In this document: positions 2,053 through 61,431 of the stretch, in pieces
Numbering within the stretch: the stretch's first letter is position 1
Layout of the letters: the number at the start of each line of letters is the position of its first letter
DNA from: an uncultured Gemmatimonadales bacterium
GTDB lineage: Bacteria; Gemmatimonadota; Gemmatimonadetes; Longimicrobiales; RSA9
Assembly: GCA_963798855.1 (NCBI GenBank)
Contig: CAWCUU010000002.1
Span: forward strand, 1,364,567-1,428,566
Length of the DNA stretch: 64,000 nucleotides
Reading direction: 5' to 3'
The notes under the pieces: model-generated
Databases searched by the model: none
What the model was told of the DNA's origin: nothing
What the model saw: the letters and a program-made list of their open reading frames with translations, nothing else
Translations under genes and position numbers: made by a program

Positions 2053-3414
2053 TTACCTCGCCCGCCCTTTCCACGCCCGCCACCCGAAGAACACCGGGAT
2101 CCCGACCAGGATCACGCCGAAGTCGAAGGCGGTCGACAGCGGCTGCTTATAGAGTGCGTTGAGCAGCATGATGACGCTGGCGATCAAAAAGACGAGCGGC
2201 ACGATCGGGTAGCCGACGGTGCGGTAGGGCCGCTCGAGGTCTGGGCGCCGGGCGCGGACCATGAAGACGGCGCCGACGGCGAGGGCGTAGAACGGCCATA
2301 TCCCCAGGATGAACGCGTCGGCGAGCTGCTCGAAGGTGCGGATCGAGACGTAGGCGATGCCGAGCAGAGCGGCGAGCGTGATCGCGACGTGAGGCGTGCG
2401 GAAGCGCGGATGCACCCTGGCGACGGGGCGGAAGAGCAGGTCGTCGTCGGCCATCGCCCAGAGGATCCGCGGACCGGTCATCATCGAGCCGTTCAGCGTG
2501 CCGAAGGTGGAGAGCATCACGAGCGCGGCGATGATCGAGGCTCCGATTTGACCGAAGATGCGCACGGCGGCGTCGGCGGCGACGAGCTGGGATCCGGCCA
2601 TGTCGCCGATGGGCAGCACGTAGAAGTAGGCGGCGTTGACGACGAGGTAGATGACGAGGATGGCGAGGGTGCCGCCGAGCAGCGCGCGAGGCAAAGTGCG
2701 CGCCGGGTCCTTGACCTCCCCGGCCATGAACGTGAGGTCGGCCCAGCCGTCGTAGGCCCAGAGCACCGCGATGAGGGCGACGCCGAAGCCGGACCAGCTC
2801 GAGGGCTGGAAGGAGATCGCGCCGGCGAGCGCGCCGCGGGCCGGGTCGCCGAAGGCGAAGGCGAGCAGCGCGACGCCGATCAGCGCGAGCACCTTCGCGG
2901 CGGTGGTCGAGTTCTCGATCGCGGCGCCGAACATCACCGACCGGTAGTTCGCTGCGGCGACGAACGCGATCGCGGCCGCGGCGACGAGGTGCACCTGCAC
3001 GTCGCTCATGGGGACGAAGGTCTGCAGGTACTCCGCGAAGATCATCGCGATGGCGCCGTACGCCGACGGCCGGATCACGAGCAGCTCGGTCCAGCCGAAG
3101 AGGAAGGCGGGCAGGTCGCCGTACGCCTCCTTCAGGTAGATGTAGATCCCGCCCGAGCGCGGGAAGAGCGCGGCGAGCTCCGCCAGCGTCAGCGCGCCGA
3201 ACAGCGCGACGACGCCGCCGACCACCCACAGCAGCGCCGCGGCGCCGACCGTGCCGACGTCACCGGCCACCGTGCTGGGCACGCGGAAGATGCCGCTGCC
3301 GATCGTCGATCCGACGAGGACCGCGGCGGCGCTCCACACGCCGAGGCGGCGGGGGAGCTTGTCCTCGACCTCGGCAGCCAGACGCTGGGGAGCGGGCTGT
3401 TCGACTCGGCTCAC
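2053..3414 (-). CDS. APC-family amino acid permease
   Basis: The real protein begins at a GTG (VSRVEQPAPQ...) inside the 700-aa ORF 2053..4155. 12-TM profile with SGGIYIYL / AYDGWADL-type motifs. The N-terminal 247 aa of the ORF are Ser/Thr/Arg junk. Confidence 0.85.
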   Translation of the reverse strand: MSRVEQPAPQRLAAEVEDKLPRRLGVWSAAAVLVGSTIGSGIFRVPSTVAGDVGTVGAAALLWVVGGVVALFGALTLAELAALFPRSGGIYIYLKEAYGDLPAFLFGWTELLVIRPSAYGAIAMIFAEYLQTFVPMSDVQVHLVAAAAIAFVAAANYRSVMFGAAIENSTTAAKVLALIGVALLAFAFGDPARGALAGAISFQPSSWSGFGVALIAVLWAYDGWADLTFMAGEVKDPARTLPRALLGGTLAILVIYLVVNAAYFYVLPIGDMAGSQLVAADAAVRIFGQIGASIIAALVMLSTFGTLNGSMMTGPRILWAMADDDLLFRPVARVHPRFRTPHVAITLAALLGIAYVSIRTFEQLADAFILGIWPFYALAVGAVFMVRARRPDLERPYRTVGYPIVPLVFLIASVIMLLNALYKQPLSTAFDFGVILVGIPVFFGWRAWKGRAR

Positions 3415-3424
3415 GGGCGCTCTC

Positions 3425-3500
3425 GATTGAAGAGTGAAGTGAGAACTGTGAAGTGTGAGGCGTGAAGACTGAATTGGGAAGTGTGAAGTCCGAAGGGTGA
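3425..3500 (-). promoter_or_regulatory. low-GC leader/promoter region of the APC permease gene with four CTTCAC(A/T) repeats, including CTTCACAGTTC
   Basis: Minus-strand reading: GGACTTCACACTTCCCAATTCAGTCTTCACGCCTCACACTTCACAGTTCTCACTTCACTCTTCAATCGAGAG...GTG. The local GC drop is conspicuous in a 70% GC genome. Confidence 0.45.
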
Positions 3501-3502
3501 CG

Positions 3503-6205
3503 TCAATTCCCGATCCAGTAGGAGAGCTTGAGCAGGAATATGTTGGTGGGGACGCTGTCGAAAATGCCGCGCGTGTCGCGGCCGAGCTCGAAGGTGCCGT
3601 CGGGCAGCGAGTAGCTGCGCTGCTGCTGCCAGACCAGGTAGAGCGTGGAGCCGGGGCGGTATTCCCAGCGCAGCACGGCGTTGCCGCGCAGCGATCGGAA
3701 GGTGAAGTCCGGATCGAAGAACTGGAACGCGGGCGCGGGGCCGTCGGCGTCGGGGTCGACGGTGTAGAAGCCCTGCCTGCCCTGCACGCCGCGGACGATC
3801 GTGCCGCGGTCGACCCCGTAGATCGCGTAGTCGAGCGAGGCCGGCGCATCCAGCTCGCGGAAGGAGGAGTAGCGTCCGGCCGAGACGAATGGCTGCGCGT
3901 AGAGCTGCAGCGACAGCGTCGGCGTGAAGGTCCAGTCGAGGCGGGTGTCCAGCCCGAGCGTCGTCTGGCGCAGCCTGGCGAAGACGTAGCGGCGACCGGA
4001 CGTCGCGTCCGCACTGGGGTCCGCGACGGTGCGCACGTACTGCTGATAGGTCGTCTGCTTCTGCAGGTCGGGGCCGAAGCTGACGTGCACGTTCGTGGCC
4101 GGCCGCGCGTCGAGGGAGATGCTGATCTCGCGACTGTTGCCGCCGAGCTCATCACGGCTGAGGGAGCCGAAGACCTGGGCGACGATCGGCTTGCGGGCGT
4201 CGCTGGAGAAGTAGGCCGAGCCGTACCACTGCGAGGGCGAGCGTGCGAGCGGGCCGCCGCGCGTCAGCCGGTCGCTCATCGTGCGGGGGTTGTAGGTGAA
4301 GCTCGCGCCGATCGTGTGGAAGCTCGACAGCTGCACGTTTCCGGAGCCCGCGAAGCCGTCGTAGATCAGGTCGCCGCCATAGTTCCACGCCTGATTCGTG
4401 TAGACGTAGGCGGAGTAGTTGCGGTACCAGCCGCTCGCCCGGTCCTCGACGTAGCGCAGGAACGTCGAGAACGCGCGGGCGTCCGCTCGCGACAGGAAGC
4501 CGATGTCGTTCAGCTCGAAGCCGGGGCTCACGTCGCGGTAGGAGAGCGAGCCGGTCCAGTGGCGGCCGCCGGCCTTCGCGAGCGCGAGCTCGGCGATGTG
4601 GCCGTCGAGCGCGGTCCGGGTCGGGTCGATTTCCAGGTAGTCGGCGTCCGGCCGCTGGTAGTATCGCGCGCTCGACGCCTGTGCGGCGGCGATGACGTCG
4701 GGCTCGCCGCGGATCCGGCTCCCCGCGACGTACCCGGAGACGGACCACGCCCGGTTCGCCCACGTGTGCAGGAAGTCCGCGCCGCCAATGTAGGCGCCGG
4801 AGCGGAGCAGCCCGGCGAGCGCGGGCAGCGACAGATCGCGGTTCGTCGCCGTGAAGATCCCGCCCAGCACCGAACGCCCCTGCCGCAGGTCCTTGCGAAG
4901 GCGAGCCACCATGTAGTTCGTCAGCGGCTCGACCCGCGTGGTGCGCATGTCACCCGTCGGGTCCGCATAGCGGGCCTCCTCCGGCGTCGTGACCGCGTCC
5001 AGGAAGCCGATCGACCAGCCGCTCGCCGTCTTGCCGCTGACCTTCGCGGCGGTCGCGATCGTGGTCTGGTCCGGCGCGTCGACGTACGCGTACTGCGAGC
5101 CGGACAGGCCGCGCTGCGGTGGCCGCCCGATGCGCCGGGAGTAGAAGTAGATGTAGCGGTTGTAGTTGTTGAAGCTCTGCGTGTTGCCGAACGAGAAGAT
5201 GTCCGATCCCTCGACGAAGAATGGCCGCTTCTCGGGGAAGAACGTCTCGAACGCGCTCAGGTTCACGACGGCCGGATCGACCTCGACCTGACCGAAGTCG
5301 GGATTCACCGTCGCGGTCAGCGTCAGCCCCGCGGGCAGCCCGTACTTCACATCCGCCCCGACGGAGAACGAGGCGTCTGTCGGCTCGAAGAACGGGTTGG
5401 CGGAGCTGCCCGGCGCGCGGACGAGCCGTGCGCTGGTGTAAGGCTGCAGCTCGAAGCGATGTGGCGGGTGGATGCCGTCGAGGCCCGTGAGGTTCCCGAA
5501 CGCGGAGACGAAGCCGGGCGAGCGCCGGGTCCACGGCGACCACGAGTCGCGCTCGTCGTGACGCGCGATGTCGCGCATCACCTGGAACCCCCAGACCCGG
5601 CCGCTGTCGCTTGGCTGTGATCCGAAGCGCAGCTGCGAGAACGGGATCCTGTACTCCGCCGTCCAGCCGAGCGAGTCCACACGCGTCGCCACGTCCCACA
5701 CCGCGTCCCACGAGACGTCCTCGTCGCCGTCGTTCGAGGTGTAGACGTCTTTCTTCACACCGAGTGGGTTGGCCGAGAAGCGGAAGGCGGTACGTCGGTC
5801 GTGATAGCTGTCGATGATGACGTGGACCCAGTCCGAGTAGATGCCGCTGGCGTCGCGCCTGGCCAGCTGGGCCGCGACGGAGTCGGGCTGGTCGTCGCGC
5901 AGACGCACGCCCACGTAGAGCGCGTCGTCGTCGTACAACACTCGCACCTCGGTCCGCTCCGTCGGCTCCGCGTTCGGCTGCGGCCAGCTCTGCATGAAGT
6001 CCGAGCCGACCGGGGCGGCCGCCCACGCCGCCTCGTTCAACCGCCCGTCGATGTCGACAGGCCCGGTGCGCCGCTCGGCGTCGAGTGCGGGCGTCGGGCC
6101 GAGGTGCCCGTTCGACGGCGGCTGCGCGCCCTGCGCGATGAGCGGACGTGGCGCCGTGAACGCGGCGGCCGCGAGTACAATGATCGAGAGGATGTCGCGA
6201 TTCAT
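3503..6205 (-). CDS. DUF5916 / carbohydrate-binding-family-9-like outer-membrane/secreted protein (900 aa, signal peptide)
   Basis: Long non-junk ORF with signal peptide MNRDILSIIVLAAAAFTAPRPLIAQ. Conserved blocks (NPDFGQVEVDPAVVNLSAFETFFPEKRPFF; RSLRGNAVLRWEYRPGSTL) are shared with the paralog at 23406..26141. Confidence 0.85.
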   Translation of the reverse strand: MNRDILSIIVLAAAAFTAPRPLIAQGAQPPSNGHLGPTPALDAERRTGPVDIDGRLNEAAWAAAPVGSDFMQSWPQPNAEPTERTEVRVLYDDDALYVGVRLRDDQPDSVAAQLARRDASGIYSDWVHVIIDSYHDRRTAFRFSANPLGVKKDVYTSNDGDEDVSWDAVWDVATRVDSLGWTAEYRIPFSQLRFGSQPSDSGRVWGFQVMRDIARHDERDSWSPWTRRSPGFVSAFGNLTGLDGIHPPHRFELQPYTSARLVRAPGSSANPFFEPTDASFSVGADVKYGLPAGLTLTATVNPDFGQVEVDPAVVNLSAFETFFPEKRPFFVEGSDIFSFGNTQSFNNYNRYIYFYSRRIGRPPQRGLSGSQYAYVDAPDQTTIATAAKVSGKTASGWSIGFLDAVTTPEEARYADPTGDMRTTRVEPLTNYMVARLRKDLRQGRSVLGGIFTATNRDLSLPALAGLLRSGAYIGGADFLHTWANRAWSVSGYVAGSRIRGEPDVIAAAQASSARYYQRPDADYLEIDPTRTALDGHIAELALAKAGGRHWTGSLSYRDVSPGFELNDIGFLSRADARAFSTFLRYVEDRASGWYRNYSAYVYTNQAWNYGGDLIYDGFAGSGNVQLSSFHTIGASFTYNPRTMSDRLTRGGPLARSPSQWYGSAYFSSDARKPIVAQVFGSLSRDELGGNSREISISLDARPATNVHVSFGPDLQKQTTYQQYVRTVADPSADATSGRRYVFARLRQTTLGLDTRLDWTFTPTLSLQLYAQPFVSAGRYSSFRELDAPASLDYAIYGVDRGTIVRGVQGRQGFYTVDPDADGPAPAFQFFDPDFTFRSLRGNAVLRWEYRPGSTLYLVWQQQRSYSLPDGTFELGRDTRGIFDSVPTNIFLLKLSYWIGN

Positions 6206-6962: not shown

Positions 6963-7060
6963 GTCCACTCTCCTCGTATGATGCGAACGTCCGCCGTCCG
7001 TCGTTGGATCGGCTCCGTCCACGAACTAGACGCCTGCCGGTGAGGAAACGTTAAGGGGGA

Positions 7061-7252
7061 CTGCAGGCGCTGAGGGCAGGCGTATACTGCAGGCGCTGAG
7101 GGCAGGCGCTGACTGCAGGCGCTGAGGGAAGGCGCTGACTGCAGGCGCTGAGGGCAGGCGTTTACTGCAGGCGCTGAGGGCAGGCGTTTACTGCAGGCGC
7201 TGAGGGCAGGCGTTTACTGCAGCCGCTGAGGGCAGGCGCTGAGGGCAGGCGC
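7061..7252. repeat. ~7.5 tandem copies of a 26-bp unit CTGCAGGCGCTGAGGGCAGGCG(TTT/CTG/TAT)A, in the divergent promoter region between the Spy-like gene and tauE
   Basis: Read directly. The unit is itself a 13-bp half-repeat (GCAGGCGCTGAGG / GCAGGCGTTTACT). Related to the GGCGCTGAC family below. Confidence 0.9.
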
Positions 7253-7496: not shown

Positions 7497-8330
7497 ATGA
7501 TGGGATTTGCGGAGGTGGCGGAGTTCGTGGTGCTCGGGTTCGGCGTCGGGGTGTACGGGACGATGGTTGGGGCGGGGGGCGGGTTCCTGATCGTGCCGGT
7601 GCTGCTGCTGATGTACCACGCAGATCCGGCGCGGGCGGCGGGGACGTCGATCACGGTGGTCTTCTTCAACGCGTTCTCTGGCTCGCTCTCCTATGCGAGG
7701 CAGAAGCGGATCGACTACAGGGCCGGACTCACATTCGCGGTCGCGACGGTGCCGGGCGCGGTGGCGGGCGCGTACATGGCGGAGCTGTTCAAGGGGCGAG
7801 ACTTCCACATCATTTTCGCGATCCTGCTGCTGGCGATCGCCGGCGTGCTGATCTGGCGACCGACCGGGGTGGCGGAGGAGGGACCGCCGGAGCCGCTCGA
7901 GGAGCATGAGGCACACCACTGGTGGAAGGTCGAGCACCGCATCGAGGATGCGAGCGGTCACGTTTTCCACTACCGCTACAACATCCTGGTCGGGACGGTG
8001 CTGAGCATCTTCGTCGGGTTCCTGTCGAGCATCCTCGGGATCGGCGGCGGCATCATCCACGTGCCGGCGCTGATCCACCTGCTGGCGTTTCCGGCACACG
8101 TCGCGACGGCGACATCTCACTTCATCCTGGCGATCTCGGCGCTGGTGGGCGCGGTCACGCACTTCGGCCTGGGCCACGTGATGGTTGGCCCCGCGCTGAC
8201 GATGGGGGTGGGCGTCGTGGTCGGCGCCCAGCTCGGTGCCCGGCTGGCGCGCCGGGTACACGGCGCGGTGGTGATCCGGATGCTGTCGCTGGCCCTGGTG
8301 GTCGTGGCGGTGCGGCTGCTCATGAAGTGA
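7497..8330 (+). CDS. TauE/SafE (DUF81) family sulfite/anion exporter
   Basis: MMGFAEVAEFVVLGFGVGVYGTMVGAGGGF... with two DUF81 halves. AGGAGAG RBS at 7490-7496 just upstream of ATG 7497. Confidence 0.85.
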   Translation: MMGFAEVAEFVVLGFGVGVYGTMVGAGGGFLIVPVLLLMYHADPARAAGTSITVVFFNAFSGSLSYARQKRIDYRAGLTFAVATVPGAVAGAYMAELFKGRDFHIIFAILLLAIAGVLIWRPTGVAEEGPPEPLEEHEAHHWWKVEHRIEDASGHVFHYRYNILVGTVLSIFVGFLSSILGIGGGIIHVPALIHLLAFPAHVATATSHFILAISALVGAVTHFGLGHVMVGPALTMGVGVVVGAQLGARLARRVHGAVVIRMLSLALVVVAVRLLMK

Positions 8331-8356
8331 AGGCGCTGACGGAAGGCGCTGACGAA
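8331..8356. repeat. two tandem AAGGCGCTGACG(G/A) units immediately after the tauE stop
   Basis: GTGA-AGGCGCTGACGG-AAGGCGCTGACGA. Forward-orientation member of the GGCGCTGAC family. Confidence 0.8.
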
Positions 8357-8425
8357 GGGGCGGGGGCTGATCGGAGTGGCCGCTCCGGCTATGGAGGTGC
8401 GCGTCGGCTCGGCCGAGATTATGGC

Positions 8426-8848: not shown

Positions 8849-8861
8849 TGGACTACCTTCC

Positions 8862-8944
8862 AGTCAGCGCCTCTCAGTGAGCGCCTCTCAGTCAGCGCCT
8901 CTCAGTAGCGCCTCGCCGTCAGCGCCTCACCGTCAGCGCCTCAC
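8862..8944. repeat. six tandem GTCAGCGCCTC(TCA/ACC) units in reverse-complement orientation, between the four-helix-bundle gene stop and the BNR hydrolase stop
   Basis: CAGTCAGCGCCTCTCAGTGAGCGCCTCTCAGTCAGCGCCTCTCAGTAGCGCCTCGCCGTCAGCGCCTCACCGTCAGCGCCTCACC. Inverted relative to 8331..8356. Confidence 0.85.
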
Positions 8945-11900
8945 CGTGAAATGATGACCGGCAGCCTTCGCCCTTGCAGCTTCGCCTGAAAGGAGGGGAG
9001 CTCCGTCTCCATCAGCGTGCGGTAGTCCTGGCGCGCTTTCTCCAGTCGCTGGCGCAGGACGTCGTGGGTCTCGCGCTGTTGCTGGGTGGGAGGGAAATCC
9101 GCGCCGTTCGCGAAGACGTCGCTGGCGAGGGCGCTGAGGCGGCCGTAGAGCTTCATGGGCGCGCGGAACGCGTCCTCGCGGGCGCCGGTCAGGTTGACGT
9201 CGAAGAGCTGGCGCTCGACGTCCAGGGTCTTCTGCTCGAGCTGGCGCGACGCAGAGACGATGTCCGACGCGGTGGAGTCGTCGTGGAGCATCGTCTGTGC
9301 CTCATCGAGCTGCTTCCTCAGCCACTCCAGGCGGTCGACCATGCGTGTCAGGTCGCCGAGCTCGTCGCTCAGCTGCAGCCCCATCGCGACCTGTGCGGCA
9401 ATGTCGCCGACAGAGCCCGTGGAGTGCGGGTCCTTCAGCACCGTCAGCGGCTGGGTGAGCGTCCGGTCGCCGACGGCGAGGCGGACCGTGTACTGTCCCG
9501 GCGCGACACGCGGCCCCACCTGTCCGCCGGTGAGGTCGAGGTCCCAGGTGACGAGCGGACGAGTGCCATCTTCGCGCATCTCGACCCAGGGCGCCGCAGG
9601 CGGCGGCGTGCGCAGCGCCGGCTTCGGCGGCGCCTCGTAGCGGAGGTCCCACCAGACGCGGTTGAGCCCCTGCTTCTTCCCCCCGTCGAGAGTGCGGATG
9701 ACGCTGTCGGCCTCGAGGATCTCGACCTCGACGGGGCCCTCGTTGTCGGCGCCGAGCCAGTAGTCGATGTCGGCGCCGTAGCGCGGGTCGCTGCCGGTCA
9801 CGTTGCTGTTCGGCGCGGCGGCGACGTCGTGGATCGGAATGAAGCGATAGGCCGGCCTCGGCGCGAGGAGCTGCACGTCGGAGGCGAGCAGCTCGGCGTC
9901 GAGCGCGCGCAGCGGCGTGACATCGTCGAGAATCCAGTAACCGCGGCCGTAGGTGCCGATGACGAGGTCGTGGAAGTGTGGCTGCACGGTGAGCCAGTAT
10001 ACGGGCGCGGGTGGCATGTTGTTGCGCAGCGCGTTCCAGTGCGCGCCGTCATCGAGCGAGAACCAGGTCGAGTTCTCGGTTCCGGCGTAGAGCATGCCGC
10101 GACGGACGGGGTCTTCGCGGACGACGTGAACGAAGGAGAAGACGGAGGGGGGCAGGTCCCCGCTGACTCGCTTCCAGCTGCGCCCGAAGTCGCGGGTCTC
10201 GTAGATGTAGGGCTCGAAATCGGCCATCTGATGGCGGTCCACCGAGATGTAGGCGGTGCCGGCATCCCAGCGCGACGGCTCGACGTTGGAGATCGTGCCG
10301 TAGGGCGGCAGGTCGCGGATGTTCTTGGTGATGTTGACCCAGCTGCCGCCGCCGTCGCGGGTGAGGCTGAGCTGGCCGTCATTGGTCCCGGCCCAGATGA
10401 CCCCCGCCTGCACGGGCGACTCGGCGATTGCGAAGAGCACGGAGCCGTCGAAGGTCATCAGGTTGTCGGTGGTCATGCCGCCGGAGCTCTTCTGCTTCGA
10501 CTTGTCGTTCAGCGTCAGGTCGGGCGAGATGACGTTCCACGAGGCGCCGCCGTCGGTCGTCAGGTGGATACGCTGACTGCCGACGTAGACCCGATTGTGA
10601 TCGTGAGGCGAGATGGCGATCGGGAAGGTCCAGTGCCAGCGCTCCTTCAGCTCGGCCGGCGGCCAGCCGTAGCCCGCCTCCGGCCACACACGGACGTTGC
10701 GCTTCTGCTGCGTCGCCGGGTCGTAGACCTCGAGTCCGCCGTCGTAGCAGCCGGACCAGACGACATTGCCGCCGGCGGTATCCGGAATCGCGAAGCCGCT
10801 CTCACAGCCGCCGACGGAGTGCCACAGACCCTCCGTGATCGAGCCCTGCCGGCTGTTGCTCGGGCCCTTGTAGGAGTAGCCATCCTGCCGGTTACCGTAG
10901 ACGTTGTAGGGGATCTCGTTGTCCACGTGGACGTGGTACATCTGCGCGATCGGGAGCACCACGCGCTGGTAGCTGCGGCCGCGGTTCAGCGTGATGGAAG
11001 CGCCGCCGTCGTGAGCGACCATGTAGCGGTCCGGGTCCTTCGGGTCGATCCAATGTCGTGGTTGTCGCCGCCGGCGCGGAAGCCGCTCTCCAGCGTCGCG
11101 CCGGCGTCGCGGGAGACGCTGAACTTGACGGACGCGAAGTAGAGCCGGTCCTCGTCGCGCGGATCGATGGCGAAGCGAGTGTAGTAGGATGCGCGCTCGG
11201 CCATGTCGTGATCGCGGCTGACGAGGTGCCAGCTGCGGCCGCCATCATCGGAGCGGTAGAGCTCGGGATCGTGCCGCTCGAGCAGGGCGTATACACGACG
11301 CGAGTCGGAGGGCGCGACGCGCACGGCGATCTTGCCGATCGAATCGCCGGCGGCCGGTAGTCCGTGGCCGCTCACCTTGGCCCACGTGTCCCCTCCATCA
11401 CGCGAGACGTAGACGCCGCCGCCGGTGCCGCCGCTCGCCAGCATCCACGGATCGATGCGCAGGCTCCACATCCCGGCGAAGATGACGCTGGGGTCGTTCG
11501 CGTCGATGTCGAGGTCGGCGCATCCGGTGTTCTCGTCGACGAAGAGGACGCGCTTCCAGGTGCGGCCGCCGTCGGCCGTCCGATAGACGCCACGCTCCTG
11601 CTGGGGCCCGTAGGCATGTCCGAGCGCGCACGCGAAGACCACGTTCGGATCGCTCGGATCGACGGCGATACGGCCGATTCGCCCCGTCTCCTCGAGCCCC
11701 ATGCGGCGCCAGCTCGCTCCGGCGTCGGTCGACTTGTAGATGCCATCGCCCAGCGAGAGGGCGGGCCTGATGATGAAGGTCTCGCCCGTGCCGGCCCAGA
11801 CCACATCCGAATCATGCGGATCGATCGCGAGCGCGCTGACCAATGAGACATCCTGATCGTCGAAGACCGGCTCCCAGCTCGCGCCGCCGTCCCTGGTCTT

Positions 11901-12131
11901 GAACAGTCCCCCGGACGCCGCGCCCACGTATGCGACGAGGGGGTTGCCCGGCTCGCCGGCGACGGCGATCGCGCGATTGCCCTCCGGCCCGATGAAGCGG
12001 TAAGGCAGCCGCGCGTAAAGGCTCGTGTCCACGCTCTGCGCCGCCAGTGCGCCCGCCAGCAGCAGGGCCGCTAGCGCGAAGCCGACCCTTGCGCCGGGAC
12101 GGAGTATCGTTCGGGTGCCGGAGCTCATCAT
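8941..12131 (-). pseudogene. BNR/sortilin(Vps10)-like repeat glycosyl-hydrolase-family protein (~1060 aa), interrupted by a 1-nt frameshift near 11050
   Basis: N-terminal part (ORF 10986..12644) starts at the internal ATG 12131 with signal peptide MMSSGTRTILRPGARVGFALAALLLAGALAAQ. C-terminal part is ORF 8941..11022. The junction reads GGDNHD|IGST in one frame and HWIDPKDPDRYMVAHDGG in the other. The expected GGDNHDHWIDP needs one extra C (gacCattgg). Confidence 0.75.
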
Positions 12132-12324
12132 GGCTTCCTCCCGCCCCGCGCGCGCAGAGCGGCTTGACGCTGTGGATTCGGGATTGTGCGCCGGGGAAGA
12201 TGTACGGGCCCTTGCAGCGTTAGCAACCCGCCGTAGCTCGTCGTTCCGTCCTCCGCGTCCTCCGTCCCTCCGCGGCCTTCGCGTCACGCCTCCTTCTGTC
12301 GCCTCCGCTTTCTCCGCGCACCGT

Positions 12325-13331: not shown

Positions 13332-15209
13332 TTACAGCTCGACCTGCATTCCGATCTCGACCACCCGGTGCGGTGGGATGCGGAAGAACGCGGTGGCGGA
13401 CTCGGAGTTGCGGGACAGGAACGCGAAGACACGCTCGCGCCACAAGGCCATGCCCTTGTGTCGCTTCGATGCGAGGATCCGCTCGCGCCCGAGGAAGAAC
13501 GAGGTCTGCAGGACCCTGTACTCGATGCCGTAATTCTTCGCGTGCATCAGCTCGCGCGGGACGTGCGGGTCCTCCATGAAGCCGTAGTGTATCACCATCC
13601 GGAAGAAGCCGTCGCCCATATCCTCGACCTCGAGCCGCTCGTCGGAGCGGACGTGCGGCACCTCCTCGGTGACGACCGTGAGCACGATGATCCGTTCGTG
13701 CAGGACCTTGGTGTGCTGCAGGTGGTGCAGCAGCGCGGGCGGGGTGACGTCCGGGTTGCCGGTCATGAAGACGGCGGTGCCCGGGACGCGGATCGGCTCC
13801 TCGGCGAGGATGTTCTTCTTGAAGAAGTCGAGCGGCACGGCGGTGGTCGAAAGGCGGTTCCGCAGGATCGCGCGCCCCTTCTTCCACGTCGTCAGCACGG
13901 TGAACACGATACCGGCGACGAGCAGCGGGAACCAGCCGCCGTCGACGACCTTCAGGATGTTCGCGCCGAAGAAGGAGACATCGAAGCAGAGGAAGAAGGC
14001 GCAGAGTGCGCCGGCCTTCCAAACGCTCCATCCCCAGAGGCGGCGCGCCACGATGTAGAAGATGAGGGTCGTGATGACCATCGTGGTCGTGACGGCGACG
14101 CCGTAAGCGGCGGCGAGGTTGGTGGAGGAGCCGAAGCCGATGACGAGCCCGATCGTCGCGAGCATGAGCACCCAGTTGACGAACGGGATGTAGATCTGGC
14201 CGATTTCCTCCGCGGAGGTGTGCTCGATGTTCAGGCGCGGACAGTAGCCGAGCTGGACGGCCTGGCGCGTGAGCGAGAAGGATCCGGAGATCACGGCCTG
14301 CGATGCGATGATCGCGGCCAGTGTCGCGAGTCCGACGAGCGGATACAGCGCCCAGTCCGGGGCGAGCCGGTAGAACGGGTTGTGGGCTGCTTCCGGGTAC
14401 ATCAGCAGCAGCGCGCCCTGGCCGAAGTAGTTGAGCAGCAGGGCGGGCAACACGAGCGTGAACCAGCCGAGGCGGATCGGCCGGCGGCCGAAGTGCCCCA
14501 TGTCGGCGTACAGCGCCTCGCCGCCGGTCACGACGAGGAAGACGGAGCCGAGCACGAGGAAGCCGTGGCCGCCGTTGTCGATGAAGAAGCGGACGGCGTA
14601 CAGTGGCAGCAGCGCGCGGAGCACCGCGGGCTGTCGCAGGATCGCCGCGATGCCCAGAACCGAGATGACCGCGAACCAGACCAGCATGATCGGCCCGAAG
14701 ATCAGGCCGACGCCCGCGGTGCCGCGGCGCTGGAAGAGGAAGAGGGCGACCAGGATCGCGACGACGATCGGGATGATGAACGGGTCGAAGGCGGTCGTTG
14801 CGACGCTGAGCCCCTCGATGGCGCCGAGCACGGAGATGGCCGGCGTGATCATCCCGTCGCCGTAGAGCAGCGCGGCGCCGAACAGGCCCATCGCGACGAG
14901 GATCCAGGCCCGGCTCCACGTCTTCGCGCTCTTCTGCGGCGCGACGAGCGACATCAGAGCGAGAATGCCGCCCTCGCCCCTGTTGTCGGCGCGCATGATG
15001 AAGACGAGGTACTTGAACGAGATGACGAGGATCAGCGACCAGAAGATCAGCGACAGCACGCCGAGCACGTTGTCGTGGCTGATCTGCACCGCGAACGCGC
15101 CGTAGAAGCATTCGCGAATCGCGTACAGCGGGCTGGTCCCGATGTCGCCGTAGACGACGCCGAGGGCGGTCAGCGTCAGGAAATGAGAGATGTCGGCCGC
15201 TGGGCTCAC
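13332..15209 (-). CDS. kup: Kup/HAK/KT potassium uptake transporter
   Basis: 625 aa with an N-terminal GVVYGDIGTSPLY motif and KUP-type architecture throughout. Confidence 0.95.
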   Translation of the reverse strand: MSPAADISHFLTLTALGVVYGDIGTSPLYAIRECFYGAFAVQISHDNVLGVLSLIFWSLILVISFKYLVFIMRADNRGEGGILALMSLVAPQKSAKTWSRAWILVAMGLFGAALLYGDGMITPAISVLGAIEGLSVATTAFDPFIIPIVVAILVALFLFQRRGTAGVGLIFGPIMLVWFAVISVLGIAAILRQPAVLRALLPLYAVRFFIDNGGHGFLVLGSVFLVVTGGEALYADMGHFGRRPIRLGWFTLVLPALLLNYFGQGALLLMYPEAAHNPFYRLAPDWALYPLVGLATLAAIIASQAVISGSFSLTRQAVQLGYCPRLNIEHTSAEEIGQIYIPFVNWVLMLATIGLVIGFGSSTNLAAAYGVAVTTTMVITTLIFYIVARRLWGWSVWKAGALCAFFLCFDVSFFGANILKVVDGGWFPLLVAGIVFTVLTTWKKGRAILRNRLSTTAVPLDFFKKNILAEEPIRVPGTAVFMTGNPDVTPPALLHHLQHTKVLHERIIVLTVVTEEVPHVRSDERLEVEDMGDGFFRMVIHYGFMEDPHVPRELMHAKNYGIEYRVLQTSFFLGRERILASKRHKGMALWRERVFAFLSRNSESATAFFRIPPHRVVEIGMQVEL

Positions 15210-21871: not shown

Positions 21872-23191
21872 CTATCCAGCGGGTGGCGTCGTGCGGAGGA
21901 GCAGCCAGCCCACCGCGCCGCTGAGGATGGAGCCGGCGAAGACGCCGACCTTGGCGGCGGCGAGGGCATGGGGGTCGCCGAGGCCGAGCGTCGCAATGAA
22001 GATCGACATCGTGAAGCCGATGCCGCACAGCCATGCGGCGCCGTAGATCTGGCGCCAGGTGACGCCGGCGGGGAGACGGGCGAGGCCGAGTCCGATCGCG
22101 GCGCGGGCGAAGATCATGACGCCGGCCTGCTTGCCGAGGACGAGGCCGAGCGCGACGCCGGCGGTTACGTTCGCGGCGGCGCCGGTGCTGCCGCGCAGGT
22201 GCACGCCGGCGTTCGCGAGCGCGAAGAGGGGCATGACGAGGTACGCGACGTATCCGTGCAAAGCGTTTTCGAAGCGGCAGAGCGGGCTCTGCACGTGCCG
22301 GCAGGCCATCTCGAGGTGGTGCGCGGCGTGGCGCTGCTCGATCGTCGGTGGTCCGGCCCGGTGGCCGTGGGGGTCGAGGATCTCGGCGAGGCCGCGCACG
22401 TGCTGGACGAAGTCGCTGCGATGCATGCGTCGCGTCGCGGGGATCAGCAGCGCGACGAGCACACCCGCCACGGTGGCGTGCACGCCGGAGTCCAGGACCG
22501 TGATCCAGACGCCGCCACCGAGCACGGCGTAGACGACCGGTCGCCAGATGTGCAGCCGGTTCGCGAGCGCGATCAACGCGAGCAACAGCAGCGCGATGCC
22601 GAGGCTGGTCCATGCGATCTTCCCGGTGTAGAAGATCGCGATGACGATCACGGCCCCCAGGTCGTCGGCGATCGCGAGGGCGGCGAGGAAGATTTTCAGG
22701 CCGAGCGGAATCCGTCGGTTCAGCAGCGATAGCACCCCGAGCGAGAAGGCGATGTCGGTGGCCATGGGGATACCCCAGCCGGTGTGCGCCGGGGTTCCGG
22801 CGTTCAGGGCGAGGTAGATGGTAGCCGGCACGATCATTCCGCCGAGCGCCGCGATCAGCGGTAGAAGCGCCTTCTTCGGTGCCGAAAGCTCGCCGATCAG
22901 CAACTCCCTCTTGATCTCGAGGCCGACGAGGAAGAAGAACATGGCCATCAGACCATCGTTGATCCAGTCGCGTAGCGGCTTCTCGAGGGCGTAGAACGGG
23001 CTGGAGACGCCGATCGGCATCTCCCAGACGCGGTCGTAGGAGGCCGCGAAGGGACTGTTGGCCCAGAGGACGGCGGTCAGAGCGGCCGCCAGCAGGATGA
23101 TTCCGCCCGACGCCTCCATCCGGAGGAAAGTCTGGAACGGGCGGATCAGGGCGCTCCGCGGGAGGCGCCTTCGTACCTTCGTCGCGTTCAT
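21872..23191 (-). CDS. nhaA: Na+/H+ antiporter NhaA
   Basis: NhaA fold motifs (FFFLVGLEIKRE; AIADDLGAV). Internal ATG 23191 (MNATKVRRRLP...). Confidence 0.9.
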   Translation of the reverse strand: MNATKVRRRLPRSALIRPFQTFLRMEASGGIILLAAALTAVLWANSPFAASYDRVWEMPIGVSSPFYALEKPLRDWINDGLMAMFFFLVGLEIKRELLIGELSAPKKALLPLIAALGGMIVPATIYLALNAGTPAHTGWGIPMATDIAFSLGVLSLLNRRIPLGLKIFLAALAIADDLGAVIVIAIFYTGKIAWTSLGIALLLLALIALANRLHIWRPVVYAVLGGGVWITVLDSGVHATVAGVLVALLIPATRRMHRSDFVQHVRGLAEILDPHGHRAGPPTIEQRHAAHHLEMACRHVQSPLCRFENALHGYVAYLVMPLFALANAGVHLRGSTGAAANVTAGVALGLVLGKQAGVMIFARAAIGLGLARLPAGVTWRQIYGAAWLCGIGFTMSIFIATLGLGDPHALAAAKVGVFAGSILSGAVGWLLLRTTPPAG

Positions 23192-23405
23192 CCCCACCTC
23201 GCCACCACTGCCGCTCCAAGATGCGTTGAACCCGCGGCCGGCGACAGGGGTTTTCGGGGCAGGCAGCCTTGCCGTCACGGCCCTCCGGCGCCGGTGCGAG
23301 CGAGCGGGCCACCAGCGCTCGGGCGAGGAGCGGATTCAACCATCTCCGCGCTGGCGGTGTCCAATGCATTGATGGCCGGCTCTCACCCCCTGCGGAGATC
23401 CCCCG

Positions 23406-33348: not shown

Positions 33349-33447
33349 GCTCGCCCAGCCGCGTTGTGAAGAGATGACGAGAGGAAACGTCTGTACGGAA
33401 AATCGCGGAACGGCGGTGCCCGGGCAAGGTCGGGTGGCCGAGATCGT

Positions 33448-34978
33448 GTAGCATTGAAGTAGAAATGTCCTAGCTGAGTGAAGTAGAAATGTCCTCCTTC
33501 GGGATCTGTTCGAATACGTTCGGGCGGACCCTGCTCCCGGAGAGAGGACGTGCTGAGCTTGAGCCAGAGTGATCGTGATTACCTGTTCGTCCTTCGCCAA
33601 GTCCAGGATCAGAAGCTGTCGGTGAGCGAAGGAGCTCGCCGACTCAGGCTTGGAGTGCGGCACATGCGGCGTCTCGTCCGCCGATTCGAGAAGGAAGGGG
33701 ATGCTGCGGTGATCCACCGGCTTCGTGGGCGGCCCTCCAACCGGCGCGTGAAGGGTGAGGTTCGCGTTCGAGCGCTCCAGAAGGCCCGTGAAACGCTCTA
33801 CAAGGACTTCGGACCCACGCTTCTGAGCGAGCACCTCGCGCGCGATCCGGTGATCGGGTCGATCCACCCTTCTACGCTGCGGCTCTGGCTTATCGCGGAC
33901 GGGCGCTGGGAGATCACACCCCGCAAGCACAAGCACCGCAGACGAAGGGAGCGGCGCCCCTGCTACGGCGAGCTCGTGCTCATGGACACCTCGATCCACC
34001 CCTGGCTCGAGGAGCGCAGCACCGAGGAGATCGTGCTCATCGCAATGATCGATGATGCGACGAGTCGCCTCTACGCCCGCTTCTTCCCCCGCGACACGGG
34101 AGCCGCAAATCGCCAACTCCTCATCGACTACCTCCGTCTGCACGGGCGGATGGGTGCTCTCTACACCGACCGTGCCGGCCACTTCGAGGTCCACTTCCGC
34201 GCCTCCGAGAGGCGGGAGAAGGACTTGGAGGCAGGGCTTACCCTCATCGAGCGTGGCCTCGCTGCTCTGGAGATCGAGCTGATCCGCGCCCTCTCTCCTC
34301 AAGCCAAGGGACGAGTGGAGCGGCTCTTCGGCACACTGCAGGACCGGCTGATCAAGGAGATGCGCGTCGCCGGGATCTCCAGCCTGGAGGAGGCGAACCG
34401 CTTTCTTCAGGAGGTCTTCATTCCGTTCTGGAACGAGCGCTTCGTTGTCGAGCCAGCCCAGAGCGCAGATGCGCACCGCCCGCTCCCCGGAGACGCCGAC
34501 CTCCTACGCCTGTTCGCAGAGACTGAGGAGCGTGTCATTCGGGCTGACTTCGTCTTCCGCTACAACAGCCGCTACTTCCAGATCGAAGCGGACGAGGCGG
34601 ACGGCGCCATGCCCAGGAGGCGGCTGACGATCGAAGAGCGCCTCGACGGCACGACGCACTTCCGGTGGCGAGGGCGCTACCTGCAGCCGACCGCTCTCGC
34701 GGCGCCTCCACAACCGAAGCAGACCACGGCGCCTGCGTGTCCGAAGCCCCATTTGGCGACTGGCGCTGCAGACAGGCCCCCGGCCGCTGACCACCCATGG
34801 CGCCGATTCCCCGTCCTGGTCGGCCGAGGCCGCATGCGCACTTCAGTCGTGGCCGCCGCTTCGCTACGGCCCGACACCCACGTGGCAGCAAAGACGCCAT
34901 CAACATCCACGAAGCCGGGGGGCACCTAGGACATTTCTACTTCACTCAACCCTAGGACTTTTCTATTTCACTCGAACA
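33448..34978 (+). mobile_element. insertion sequence (~1.53 kb), ISNCY(IS1202-group)- or IS481-like, single transposase ORF, flanked by an 18-bp direct repeat
   Basis: Ends carry tandemly duplicated ~22-bp terminal repeats (left: GTAGCATTGAAGTAGAAATGTCCTAG + CTGAGTGAAGTAGAAATGTCCTCC; right: CTAGGACATTTCTACTTCACTC + CTAGGACTTTTCTATTTCACTC). TCGGGTGGCCGAGATCGT occurs immediately outside both ends (33430-33447 and 34979-34996). The ends have lower GC than the host. Confidence 0.8.
33550..34929 (+). CDS. IS transposase (HTH + DDE/integrase-core type)
   Basis: N-terminal HTH (LSVSEGARRLRLGVRHMRRLVRRFEKEGDAAVIHRLRGRPSNRRV) typical of ISNCY/IS481-type transposases. Followed by a DDE core. Confidence 0.85.
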   Translation: MLSLSQSDRDYLFVLRQVQDQKLSVSEGARRLRLGVRHMRRLVRRFEKEGDAAVIHRLRGRPSNRRVKGEVRVRALQKARETLYKDFGPTLLSEHLARDPVIGSIHPSTLRLWLIADGRWEITPRKHKHRRRRERRPCYGELVLMDTSIHPWLEERSTEEIVLIAMIDDATSRLYARFFPRDTGAANRQLLIDYLRLHGRMGALYTDRAGHFEVHFRASERREKDLEAGLTLIERGLAALEIELIRALSPQAKGRVERLFGTLQDRLIKEMRVAGISSLEEANRFLQEVFIPFWNERFVVEPAQSADAHRPLPGDADLLRLFAETEERVIRADFVFRYNSRYFQIEADEADGAMPRRRLTIEERLDGTTHFRWRGRYLQPTALAAPPQPKQTTAPACPKPHLATGAADRPPAADHPWRRFPVLVGRGRMRTSVVAAASLRPDTHVAAKTPSTSTKPGGT

Positions 34979-35106
34979 TCGGGTGGCCGAGATCGTCGGG
35001 GGCCGCGCCCGTCGTCACCCGCTCGATCGTGTGCGAGGCCGCGGCCGTCATCCGCCGCCGTGGCCTCGCGCGAGATTCGGAGTGGGTGGATCGCTGCAGC
35101 GACCTG

Positions 35107-35749: not shown

Positions 35750-35930
35750 TACTGCGAGGCGCTGACTGCGAGGCGCTGACTGCGAGGCGCTGACTGCGAG
35801 GCGCTGACTGCAGGCGCTGACTGCAGGCGTTCACCACAGGCGCCTCGGCGTCAGCGCCTTCCTTCGACGCCTCGCCGCCAACGCCTGCTTTCAGCGCCTT
35901 CCTTCGACGCCTCGCCGTCAGCGCCTTACA
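35750..35930. repeat. palindromic GGCGCTGAC array: five forward CTGCGAGGCGCTGA units, a central spacer, then reverse-orientation GTCAGCGCC/GACGCCTCGCC units
   Basis: ACTGCGAGGCGCTGACTGCGAGGCGCTGACTGCGAGGCGCTGACTGCGAGGCGCTGACTGCAGGCGCTGACTGCAGGCGTTCACCACAGGCGCCTCGGCGTCAGCGCCTTCCTTCGACGCCTCGCC...GTCAGCGCCTTA. Between the saccharopine dehydrogenase stop and the LemA start. Confidence 0.85.
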
Positions 35931-44519: not shown

Positions 44520-45380
44520 GTGGCAATGTCCAGAAGAGGCATCCTTCACGGCGCGCGGCAGACCCTCGGGGCTGCGGGCGACATCCTAAAGGCGGCGATC
44601 ATCTTCGTCCTGTGGAACGTGATGATCGTGCCAATGCTTCTGCTGCCGCCGCTCTGGGCGACGCTCTGGATGATGCTGGCCGTCGCGCTGCTCTATTACG
44701 TGCACATCGGCCGCGCGCTGCGACCGGGGCGAGAGCAGAAGCGCGCGACGCTGCGCTTGCGCCCGCCGGGCGCAGCGGTTCCGTGGGCGCTCGCCGCCGC
44801 GCTGCCGATGTTCTGCGTGAGCCTTTCGGGGACCTTCCTGCTGATCTGGCTGGGATTCCCGCCCGCCCTGCGCGGCTCCGACCTGCTGCAGGGCTACGCG
44901 CTGCAGCCGTTCGGCTGGCTTCCGCTCGCGGTCATGGTCGTGCTGTTCGCGCCGATCCTGGAAGAGCTGGTGTTCCGGGGCTGGATCCAGCGGTCGCTCG
45001 AGCGGCGCTTCGGCGCCCTGCCCGGCATCCTGCTCGCCGCCGCGCTGTTCGCGGTCGCGCACGGGGCATCGCTGGGCAACACGAGCCGCTTCCTCATGGG
45101 GCTCGTTCTCGGCTGCGCGGTCTACCTGAGCCGCTCGATCTGGACGAGCATCATCCTGCACGCCGCACACAACGCGATCATCATGGCGCTCGGGCCCCTC
45201 ACCGAGCAGGCGTTGCCCGCGGGCGGCGCGCTGCAGCCCTGGATGAACGCGCTCGGAGGGCCGCAGCCGTTCCTCGCGATGCTGCTCGTCAGCCTGAGCG
45301 CGCTCGTCTGGATGGGATGGCGCGCGCACCTCGAGATCGGCGCGTTGGCGTTCGAGTTGGAGCCGGCAACGGTCCGGTAG
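44520..45380 (+). CDS. CPBP-family intramembrane metalloprotease (second copy)
   Basis: EELVFRG, FAVAHG and LHAAHN motifs. Same architecture as 42342..43223. Confidence 0.85.
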   Translation: MAMSRRGILHGARQTLGAAGDILKAAIIFVLWNVMIVPMLLLPPLWATLWMMLAVALLYYVHIGRALRPGREQKRATLRLRPPGAAVPWALAAALPMFCVSLSGTFLLIWLGFPPALRGSDLLQGYALQPFGWLPLAVMVVLFAPILEELVFRGWIQRSLERRFGALPGILLAAALFAVAHGASLGNTSRFLMGLVLGCAVYLSRSIWTSIILHAAHNAIIMALGPLTEQALPAGGALQPWMNALGGPQPFLAMLLVSLSALVWMGWRAHLEIGALAFELEPATVR

Positions 45381-45610
45381 GGGTGCCCGCGCCGCGACGC
45401 GCCCCGGCGCGCGGCGTTCCCCGGGTCCCCTCCGGCCGTCCCGGCCGACTCCGAGCCGGAGCCGCGAGCCTCCTGTCGAGGGGGCGGCCCCGGCTCCGGT
45501 CGGATCCGCTCGGTGATCGGCAGCAGCCCGCACTACTCCAGCGCCCGCGCGCGGACCATCCTCGATCGCCGTCCCTCGTCGTATATTGCCGCGATCTCGC
45601 AGCACTCCTA

Positions 45611-45650
45611 CTTCGCCGATCCACTTCACCCTTCACAGTTCCCCTTCATG
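45611..45650 (+). promoter_or_regulatory. leader of the Tat-aminotransferase gene carrying CCACTTCACCCTTCACAGTTCCCCTTCATG, the same CTTCACAGTTC 11-mer as the permease leader
   Basis: An exact 11-mer is shared with 3425..3500. Both lie in lower-GC stretches 10-35 nt upstream of the start codon. Confidence 0.4.
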
Positions 45651-45659
45651 GAGACACCC

Positions 45660-46811: not shown

Positions 46812-47098
46812 GGGCAGGCGCTGACGGCAGGCGCTGACGGCAGGCGCTAACGGCAGGCGCTGACAGCAGGCGCTTACGGCAGGCGCTGACGGCAGGCGCT
46901 TACGGCAGGCGCTGACAGCAGGCGCTGACGGCAGGCGCTGACAGCAGGCGTATCCTGCTTCGACGCATCGTCCTGAGCGCCTCGCAGTGCGCGCCTCGCC
47001 GTGCGCGCCTCGCCGTGCGCGCCTCGCCGTGCGCGCCTCGCCTTGAGCGCCTCACTTTGAGCGCCTCGGTTCGAGCGCCTCGCAGTCAGCGCCTGCCT
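46812..47098. repeat. largest GGCGCTGAC array: ~10 forward GGCAGGCGCT(G/T/A)AC units (46812-46945) followed by a reverse arm of (GTGCGCGCCTCGCC)4 and GAGCGCCTC units, in the convergent gap between the aminotransferase and ABC-2 permease genes
   Basis: Read directly. The arms are imperfectly complementary, giving a long imperfect hairpin. Confidence 0.9.
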
Positions 47099-48852: not shown

Positions 48853-48963
48853 GCAGCCTCCGTTCGAGCGCGTAACGAATCGTCGACTCCTCCTGACGGC
48901 GGCGGCGGGCCGCAGGTTTCAGCGGGGGTGTACGCGCTCGCTGGTCGCGGGTAGCTTGTCGCG

Positions 48964-61044: not shown

Positions 61045-61080
61045 GAGGGGAAGAGCGAGGAAGGGAGGAGGTCGGTGGGC

Positions 61081-61362: not shown

Positions 61363-61416
61363 GACGAGGGCGAGGGACCCGGAAGCAGCCCGGCGACTCC
61401 TCGCCCTCGCCCTCGC
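61363..61416 (-). terminator. GC-rich hairpin (GAGGGCGAGGG ... CCCTCGCCCTC, ~11-bp stem, ~25-nt loop) between the lipoprotein gene stop and the small ORF start
   Basis: Self-complementarity read directly. No U-tract, so classification as an intrinsic terminator is weak. Confidence 0.3.
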
Positions 61417-61431
61417 CCTAGCCCTAGCCTC

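Follow-up and report, generated by a model that had tools for sequence, protein, structure and literature searches.

Two gene leaders in a 64,000-nt stretch of DNA from an uncultured Gemmatimonadales bacterium of the Longimicrobiales (contig CAWCUU010000002.1, positions 1,364,567 to 1,428,566; hereafter the 'window') carry tandem arrays of the heptanucleotide ACTTCAC, one in front of the gene for an APC-family amino-acid permease (site A) and one in front of the gene for a class I/II aminotransferase with a twin-arginine N-terminus (site B). With moderate confidence, we interpret these arrays as a lineage-specific, degenerate heptanucleotide simple-sequence repeat (SSR) of a known class, and not as a conserved amino-acid regulatory site. 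The initial annotation of this DNA had drawn attention to an 11-mer common to both leaders and had proposed that a common regulator, or an RNA element in the 5' untranslated region (UTR), might act on the two genes.

At site A, 11 units occupy the entire gap from the stop codon of the upstream DUF5916 gene to the Shine-Dalgarno (SD) sequence and GTG start codon of the permease gene: the first unit begins on the final base of the stop codon and the array ends 2 nt 5' of GAGAG. Read in the sense direction, units 1-6 (from 3503) are ACGTCAC, CCTTCGG, ACTTCAC, ACTTCCC, AATTCAG and TCTTCAC, and units 7-11 (down to 3427) are GCCTCAC, ACTTCAC, AGTTCTC, ACTTCAC and TCTTCAA; the consensus is ACTTCAC, and unit positions 4 and 5 (T4, C5) are invariant in 11/11 units. 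Tandem Repeats Finder (TRF) delimited the array as 3428-3500, with a period of 7, 10.4 copies and 68% matches. Its 77 nt contain 31 C, 6 G, 23 T and 17 A, and the G count of the whole 88-nt leader is 10. Site B comprises 3 to 4 units, just two of which are perfect, and the fourth (CTTCATG) is out of phase by one base and overlaps ATG 45648. The choice of ATG 45660 as the better start of the aminotransferase, made in the initial annotation, agrees with an identical 383-aa database protein (P0121), with an orthologue in a related genome (L003) that starts M-x-RRDFLRGS, and with the GGAGA located 5 nt 5' of this codon. The permease likewise has an identical database protein (P0001, 453 aa).

The 11-mer, CTTCACAGTTC, is present as an exact sequence at two places in the window only, 3443-3453 on the minus strand and 45631-45641 on the plus strand, as had been reported for these two unlinked leaders, and a third match, with one mismatch, lies within site A. 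Dinucleotide shuffles of the window gave a mean of 0.37 matches at one mismatch or fewer, and 1/100 shuffles reached three. With respect to the downstream gene, both exact copies are in the sense orientation, 19-39 nt 5' of the start codons (GTG 3414 and ATG 45660), and the two leaders have them in common because both arrays repeat the same heptamer. The clusters of CTTCAC described around the 11-mer are thus real and, by TRF and manual cutting, are head-to-tail heptamer repeats; the DNA is also GC-poor locally, as had been stated, with 48% GC in the site A array against ~69% in the window.

We compared the arrays with chance expectation in a 467-kb Longimicrobiales sample consisting of the window and 31 related loci. 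Four phased CTTCAC units with at least 19/24 matches were found at site A only, and with three phased units the best match outside site A was site B (16/18). In Markov simulations of the window from which site A had been removed, a match of 16/18 or better arose in 0/300 (order-1) and 2/300 (order-3) simulated windows, corresponding to about p<0.01. The CTTCAC hexamer itself is in excess in the window (47 observed, 19 expected), and this is mostly a matter of codon usage, because 17/20 of the sense-strand matches in coding sequence share a single frame, xxC TTC ACx. It could be argued that site A alone is a true repeat and that the likeness of site B to it is fortuitous, given that one exact 11-mer among ~46 leaders is about what is expected (by our own estimate, ~3300 nt of leader sequence corresponds to 5e6 pairs of positions x 4^-11, or ~1) and that site B has just two perfect units. 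We regard this as very improbable: the simulations rarely or never reproduced the phased match, site B ranks first outside site A across the 467 kb, and the similarity of the two sites extends to 17/20 bases. The phased repeat structure is therefore beyond chance, and the initial observation is confirmed in a stronger form than it was first given.

The arrays are absent from orthologous leaders. Protein matches assign the window to the Longimicrobiales (Gemmatimonadota), and the nearest genomes are two soil metagenome-assembled genomes, L125 and L126 (the latter the same contig as L001), in which the permease is 91% identical; the heptamer array was not found in either of their permease leaders, and a CTTCAC array was not found in ~20 further, more distant leaders of permease orthologues. 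Nor was the array found in four leaders of aminotransferase orthologues (L003, L279, L280 and L281), of which L003 carries the nearest orthologue (62% identity, syntenic). At site A, L001 has a short spacer between its PAP2 gene and the permease gene that reads TGA-CGATCCCTTCCGCAG-GAGAGCGCC, and the window has TGA-CGTCACCCTTCGG-[array]-GAGAGCGCC, the block GAGAGCGCC at the permease SD being common to the window and to L001/L126. At site B, in an alignment anchored by hand on TATATT, TATATT-N23-CTTCGCC is common to the window and L003, after which the window is 15 nt longer, or ~two units, and contains the CTTCAC units. Thus, at both sites, a relative has just one stretch containing CTTC in place of the array of the window, and for this reason we infer that the arrays originated by slippage from such a seed and have been nearly neutral since. 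In this lineage, each spacer would already have had a short stretch with CTTC, on which slipped-strand expansion acted, and later point mutation would have let the site A array decay to ~68% unit identity. Because the G-poor strand is the sense strand, each array leaves a leader that is unusually G-poor and, by prediction, single-stranded just 5' of an ordinary SD; as a side effect, the two leaders are predicted to be the least structured of the window and are its most G-poor. For this reason, an effect on expression, if any, would most likely be generic, with the array acting as a spacer or landing platform free of structure rather than responding to amino acids.

Such properties are those of SSRs. 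The units are head to tail, fall within 5-11 nt and have no spacers between them, the tracts are longer than chance predicts, their location is non-coding, and turnover is evident in that the array is missing at the orthologous sites of the 91% relatives and of L003. According to Mrazek (2007), as summarised in PMC4679880, no class of long SSR is more abundant than heptanucleotide repeats in the majority of prokaryotic genomes, with polymerase slippage given as their cause. Long SSRs (5-11 nt units), as described there, resemble the arrays reported here in having a head-to-tail unit, an intergenic location, a length beyond chance and a patchy distribution among lineages, although long SSRs are near-perfect whereas the present arrays are degenerate (68% unit identity).

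Arrays of this kind are frequent in these genomes. The window has at least 8 other intergenic arrays, and among them 13/14-mer (and 26-mer) arrays with the core GGCGCTGA / TCAGCGCC recur in at least five intergenic places in the 64 kb and constitute a genome-specific family. The 467 kb contain 28 arrays outside called genes with a period of 6-8 and at least 3.4 copies; a TTCAC/GTGAA core is present in 7/28 of these, against ~0.5 expected by our own estimate. No further heptamer array of the type seen at sites A and B was found in 400 kb from relatives. Overall, Longimicrobiales intergenic DNA abounds in arrays with a period of 6-14 nt, among which units with a TTCAC core recur: L139 has (CTTCACCC)n and (GTTCACCC)n directly 5' of its permease promoter, and L140 has a (GTGAACGG)13 array. 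On our reading, the arrays at sites A and B are neither a gene-specific operator nor a conserved RNA motif; they are part of the Longimicrobiales family of short tandem arrays.

The pattern is also abundant elsewhere. Scanning of sequence collections, which yields lower bounds and indicates abundance without a baseline for other heptamers, gave at least 120 matches to (TTCACNN)4 (20 specified bases) in metagenomes and at least 120 matches to a 16-specified-base pattern in a viral set. Among the (TTCACNN)4 matches listed, the contigs have a GC content of 0.29-0.69, and neither a test based on open reading frames (ORFs) nor gene calls based on GC at third codon positions (GC3) revealed an orientation bias: on contigs with GC of 0.6 or more, the GC3-based gene caller placed 10 arrays upstream sense, 12 upstream antisense, 11 downstream sense and 12 downstream antisense, and the cruder ORF test, with gene starts within 60 nt, gave 57 forward and 43 reverse. 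Several metagenome loci (in the series L159-L278) have (TTCACNN)4 arrays directly 5' of recognisable start codons; judged by eye from the N-terminus, the genes include a glmS-like one (MCGIVGY; L215) and a hisH/hisA-like one (L194).

Table 1. Positions of the arrays, genes and signals discussed in the text (window coordinates unless a locus is named).
Feature	Position	Strand	Basis or remark
Site A, degenerate heptanucleotide tandem array, 11 units	3427-3503	-	TRF and manual units
CTTCACAGTTC at site A	3443-3453	-	Unit 8 and start of unit 9
SD-like GAGAG, 5 nt 5' of GTG	3420-3424	-	Sequence
APC-family amino-acid permease, GTG start 3414-3412	2053-3414	-	Pfam AA_permease_2, E=1.6e-61
DUF5916/CBM9 gene upstream of permease, stop TGA 3505-3503 adjoining first array unit	3503-6205	-	ORF and Pfam
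31-codon open frame TTG...TGA across array	3411-3506	-	Overlaps DUF5916 stop and permease GTG
Site B: ACTTCAC CCTTCAC AGTTCCC, then CTTCATG	45623-45650	+	Three phased units, 16/18
CTTCACAGTTC at site B	45631-45641	+	Exact match
TATATT, -10-like box	45582-45587	+	Conserved with L003; 72 nt 5' of ATG 45660
CTTCGCC, candidate ancestral seed, 23 nt 3' of TATATT	45611-45617	+	Same spacing in L003 leader
SD-like GGAGA, 5 nt 5' of ATG 45660	45650-45654	+	Sequence
Class I/II aminotransferase, RRDFLRGS (twin-arginine) N-terminus	45660-46811	+	Pfam Aminotran_1_2, E=6.6e-50
GGCGCTGA-core arrays	7060-7252, 8329-8358, 8861-8942, 35751-35926, 46813-47094		TRF
Hexamer arrays	61007-61045, 61399-61429		
Array of 30-nt unit CGGGGGGCGCTCCGCCCTGACGGGCGATCG, 10.3 copies, 97% identity	21566-21872		Adjoins 3' end of Na+/H+ antiporter gene
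Na+/H+ antiporter gene	21872-23197	-	
Insertion-sequence transposase, helix-turn-helix and rve_3 domains	33550-34929	+	Within insertion sequence
Inverted array pairs, window	8329-8358/8861-8942, 35751-35829/35851-35926, 46813-46950/46974-47094, 61007-61045/61399-61429		
Inverted array pairs, relatives (1)	L003 14026-14268; L131 441-735; L136 17619-17719; L139 6675-6933, 9249-9839		
Inverted array pairs, relatives (2)	L149 14803-14885; L138 6756-6924; L140 6922-7203		
Octamer arrays, relatives	L137 1554-1629; L139 9249-9312, 9708-9839; L140 6922-7028; L143 6122-6149, 16412-16437, 18190-18243		

Several observations weigh against a purely neutral, slippage-generated repeat. The argument for a seed consists of short similarities, MAFFT gave no convincing alignment of the leaders with those of the relatives, and the arrays of the source genome were counted within the 64-kb window. 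Two arrays of the same unit within 64 kb, both in the sense orientation and both ending 10-13 nt before a start codon and directly 5' of an SD, are more than independent slippage predicts, and site B is significant in simulations given the site A motif. Units with a TTCAC core recur across the order, and TTCAC is the sense-strand sequence in all five (5/5) TTCAC-core arrays that lie no further than 125 nt from a gene start, which, in this small sample, hints at selection or at a sequence-specific factor. In addition, the leaders of the Longimicrobium permease orthologues, though different in sequence, are themselves G-poor (~0.17, compared with a mean of 0.31 in 208 Longimicrobiales leaders), and the G-poverty of the permease leader may be under selection.

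Some of the same observations favour an alternative, to which we give a smaller though appreciable probability, namely that the transcribed (ACUUCAC)n forms a functional leader element, a G-poor single-stranded platform kept by selection. Rho utilization (rut) sites, artificial polypyrimidine-repeat Rho terminators and unstructured ribosome standby sites are all C-rich or G-poor, unstructured stretches of RNA, and site A, with its ~80 nt of C-rich, G-poor, unstructured sequence beside the ribosome-binding site (RBS), has a resemblance to them that is compositional only. As a platform, the repeat could offer ribosomes a standby site, or S1 a landing site, in front of a partly structured RBS; it could be covered by an OB-fold protein, for example one with a cold-shock domain, at one monomer per 7 nt; or it could load Rho (a rut site) and so make transcription of the permease gene dependent on translation. 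The basis for these proposals is composition. The predicted mean unpaired probability over positions -80 to -1 is 0.547 and 0.553 at the two sites, the two highest values among 45 window genes (0.491 or less in the others). G makes up 0.12 of positions -60 to -1 at both sites, and just 1.4% of the 208 leaders are that G-poor. Site A, with a C:G ratio of 31:6 in 77 nt and 19 YC dinucleotides, has the composition expected of a rut site (~70-80 nt, C well above G, little structure) in terms of C:G and unpaired probability. The permease orthologues, moreover, retain G-poor leaders that mostly lack an SD, and the sense-strand bias of the TTCAC-core arrays described above points in the same direction. 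A platform might also be likened to the TAACTGA leader repeats of Beggiatoaceae, which lie just 5' of start codons, CspB being able to bind heptamer repeats with one protein per heptamer (PMC4679880).

Other results do not sit easily with a platform kept by selection. Orthologous leaders have no array even at 91% protein identity, the RBS itself (-20 to +5) is predicted to be no more accessible than average (0.38 and 0.34; mean 0.41), and the leader folds are unexceptional (z = -1.8 and +1.1). Among the metagenome matches listed, TTCAC arrays on high-GC contigs show no bias in orientation or position, and in the window the repeat was not found in the remaining 40-odd leaders, so that only 2 of ~46 carry it. 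The missing conservation and the unbiased orientation in the wider sample speak against a specific signal. The arrays may nevertheless act as a generic single-stranded platform, a role that overlaps with the S1-like alternative of the initial annotation. A broader version, which we judge improbable, is that the ACTTCAC arrays and the TTCACCC-type arrays of Longimicrobium together form an order-wide post-transcriptional code read by an OB-fold protein (cold-shock-domain or S1-like) with a footprint of 7-8 nt. If it were true, that protein would coat leader repeats on the sense strand and set the translation or the Rho-dependent read-through of transporter and metabolic genes, and quick gain or loss of arrays would amount to a re-tuning of expression.

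Regulation of the two genes by a common factor fares less well. Known tandem-repeat operators have a period of ~10-11 bp, which keeps their sites on one face of the helix, and CsrA sites need GGA motifs, usually in hairpin loops and with one overlapping the SD. The contiguous 7-bp period of the present arrays would turn successive sites by ~240 degrees round the helix, and array A has one GGA only (3491-3489) and no hairpin with a GGA loop. An operator at which a regulator of amino-acid uptake or catabolism recognises duplex CTTCAC direct repeats is attractive in that the same motif precedes two genes that both handle amino acids, and some regulators, such as the SARP-LAL proteins of Streptomyces, are reported to use heptameric direct repeats (PMC5930380). 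We nonetheless consider such an operator highly unlikely: site B is 3' of the likely promoter and 5' of the SD, site A lies in an 88-nt intercistronic gap without a promoter-like site, the array is missing at every orthologous leader examined, and the motif is present at only 2/5 amino-acid genes in the window, the leaders of the SNF-family symporter, saccharopine dehydrogenase and pyridoxal-phosphate (PLP)-dependent decarboxylase genes being without it. The common regulator suggested in the initial annotation is thus unsupported, because the orthologous leaders, including those of the 91% relatives, and the other amino-acid genes lack the array and because of the 7-bp period and the single GGA. 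CsrA and Hfq, also put forward there, find no sites: the 6 G and single GGA of array A rule out a canonical CsrA site, and ARN repeats, the triplets recognised by Hfq, are lacking. The companion idea of a 5'-UTR RNA element holds in part, since the motif is probably located in a transcribed leader, as the TATATT box at site B suggests (if this box is used, site B would lie in a 5' UTR of ~65 nt); a conserved amino-acid signal in that leader is not supported. Rfam returned no match at the gathering threshold in the window or in seven orthologous loci, and scans for sigma-70 consensus promoters and intrinsic terminators around both sites found nothing.

We also considered the 31-codon open frame that crosses site A from TTG 3506 to TGA 3411 and would encode LTSPFGLHTSQFSLHASHFTVLTSLFNRERP. 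According to this view, ribosomes that finish DUF5916 would cross the array and re-initiate at the permease gene, possibly sensing the supply of Phe, His or Ser; in favour of this, the frame is uninterrupted and at each end shares 4 nt with its neighbour (TTGA at the DUF5916 stop and GTGA at the permease start), the kind of overlap used in translational coupling. However, the frame probably came about incidentally: any run of ACTTCAC units is free of stop codons in all three forward frames, and few third positions are G or C (18/31, counted by eye, compared with ~0.85-0.93 in window genes). The chance of hitting the frame that ends at GTGA is ~1 in 3, the TTG has no SD, and neither site B nor the relatives have anything similar, all of which makes a leader-peptide relay exceedingly unlikely. 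Other candidates were rejected. A promoter inside array A was discounted by eye, as no acceptable -10 box (A at position 2, T at position 6) follows TTGACG (3506-3501) at 16-18 nt; pairing with 16S rRNA, through the GUGAAGU of helix 44, was discounted because a 7-mer in any rotation is expected several times by chance in rRNA (by our own estimate); and H-DNA, G-quadruplex and i-motif structures were discounted because the unit has neither a G- or C-tract nor mirror symmetry.

Among bacterial heptamer repeats, one parallel to the two arrays is with the TAACTGA direct repeats of marine Beggiatoaceae, which are forward-oriented just 5' of start codons and for which S1, Csp and CsrA have been proposed as binders (MacGregor 2015, PMC4679880); 169 sets are found in the genome described, most of which stop 1 to a few nt short of the start codon and take the place of the SD (PMC4679880). 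Both are heptamer direct repeats of 2-6 or more copies that lie in the forward orientation just upstream of starts with unrelated downstream functions. The unit sequence differs, 2 sets are seen in the 64 kb of the window, and the present leaders, rather than having the repeat end within a few nt of the start in place of the SD, keep SD-like GAGAG and GGAGA, with the arrays ending 13 and 10 nt upstream. In Xanthomonas and Nostoc, the heptamers GGGNATC and GGGGA(C/T)T are found no more than 50 bp in front of ORFs, where the antisense strand is the G-rich one (Rehm et al. 2015, PMC4692102). Like our arrays, these and the cyanobacterial STRR repeats form genome-specific heptamer families in non-coding DNA and, near ORFs, leave a G-poor leader; they differ in having G-tracts and quadruplexes, whereas GTGAAGT has no G-tract and hence no potential for a G-quadruplex or i-motif. 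The STRR heptamers were reportedly described by Mazel et al. in 1990. Heptamers with G3 tracts (GGGGACA, AGGGAAC) do occur in related Longimicrobium loci. Finally, phase-variation repeats, such as AGAT in the 5' UTR of Moraxella uspA2 (cited in PMC4679880), are also tandem repeats between promoter and start codon. Contingency loci, however, need perfect repeats to slip fast, whereas site A is degenerate (68% unit match, with no adjacent perfect units), site B has two perfect units, and the array lies outside an ORF and outside a -35/-10 spacer.

The Longimicrobium permease orthologues (L130, L132, L135-L143) display features of their own. They have promoter-like boxes, TTGTGA-N17-TATCTT, in common, followed by a C-rich, G-poor and mostly SD-less leader of ~60 nt with a conserved GCCGCTCGGCAGGGCTCAC (for example, L139 9840-9937). 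Rfam gave no match in these leaders, which may represent an undescribed cis-regulatory leader. Octamer arrays with a TTCACCC / GGGTGAA core are present in several Longimicrobium species, and those in L139 run directly into the -35 box of the permease promoter.

Tandem arrays also mark places where the gene content differs between the window and its relatives. In both cases in which the window lacks a gene of the relatives, a tandem array or array pair is located exactly at the junction: L125 and L126 have a PAP2 gene directly 5' of the permease gene, where the window has the site A array (3427-3503), and L003 has a patatin-like gene downstream of the aminotransferase gene (11194-12195), where the window has an array pair (46813-47094). 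L003 has a (CCTCAG)5.5 array at 14236-14268 that ends 4 nt 5' of the ATG of a methyladenine glycosylase gene, and no array was found in the orthologous spacer of the window (48853-48963). A gene for an Rce1-like CAAX protease (window 44520-45380), between a 408-aa gene and the aminotransferase gene, has no counterpart in the syntenic L003, which keeps the TATATT box and the leader seed despite lacking this gene.

Short arrays (periods 6, 7, 8, 13 and 14) often form inverted pairs around 5-500 nt, and inverted GTGAA...TTCAC pairs are likewise frequent in the metagenome loci (L178, L204, L237 and L241). The order within a pair is uniform: read 5' to 3' on either strand, the C-rich array follows the G-rich one in 11/11 neighbouring pairs with clearly opposite G/C skew, and the window pairs beyond the 11 scored follow the same order by eye. 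To our knowledge, this polarity has not been described; it fits hairpin-forming elements or the addition of repeats to both 3' ends of a break. Some arms of the pairs contain G3 tracts at a 7-nt spacing (GGGGACA, AGGGAAC, AGGGCA) and are candidate G-quadruplexes. The window also holds an insertion sequence (33433-34996) with terminal inverted repeats that each contain a doubled GGACATTTCTACTTCA; these terminal repeats account for two of the intergenic CTTCAC matches.

For annotation, the motif is thus unfit for inferring an amino-acid regulon or a new RNA family. For the Longimicrobiales (Gemmatimonadota), which are known almost only from metagenome bins, the results reveal intergenic DNA that is unusually rich in short arrays with recurrent cores, and these arrays differ between close relatives and can adjoin ribosome-binding sites. 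The function of bacterial heptamer repeats has been a standing question since the STRR repeats and the SSR survey of 2007, and this clade offers many comparisons of array gain and loss. If the arrays modulate expression, they would provide a cheap and fast-evolving means of tuning in a very GC-rich genome, in which unstructured leaders are scarce.

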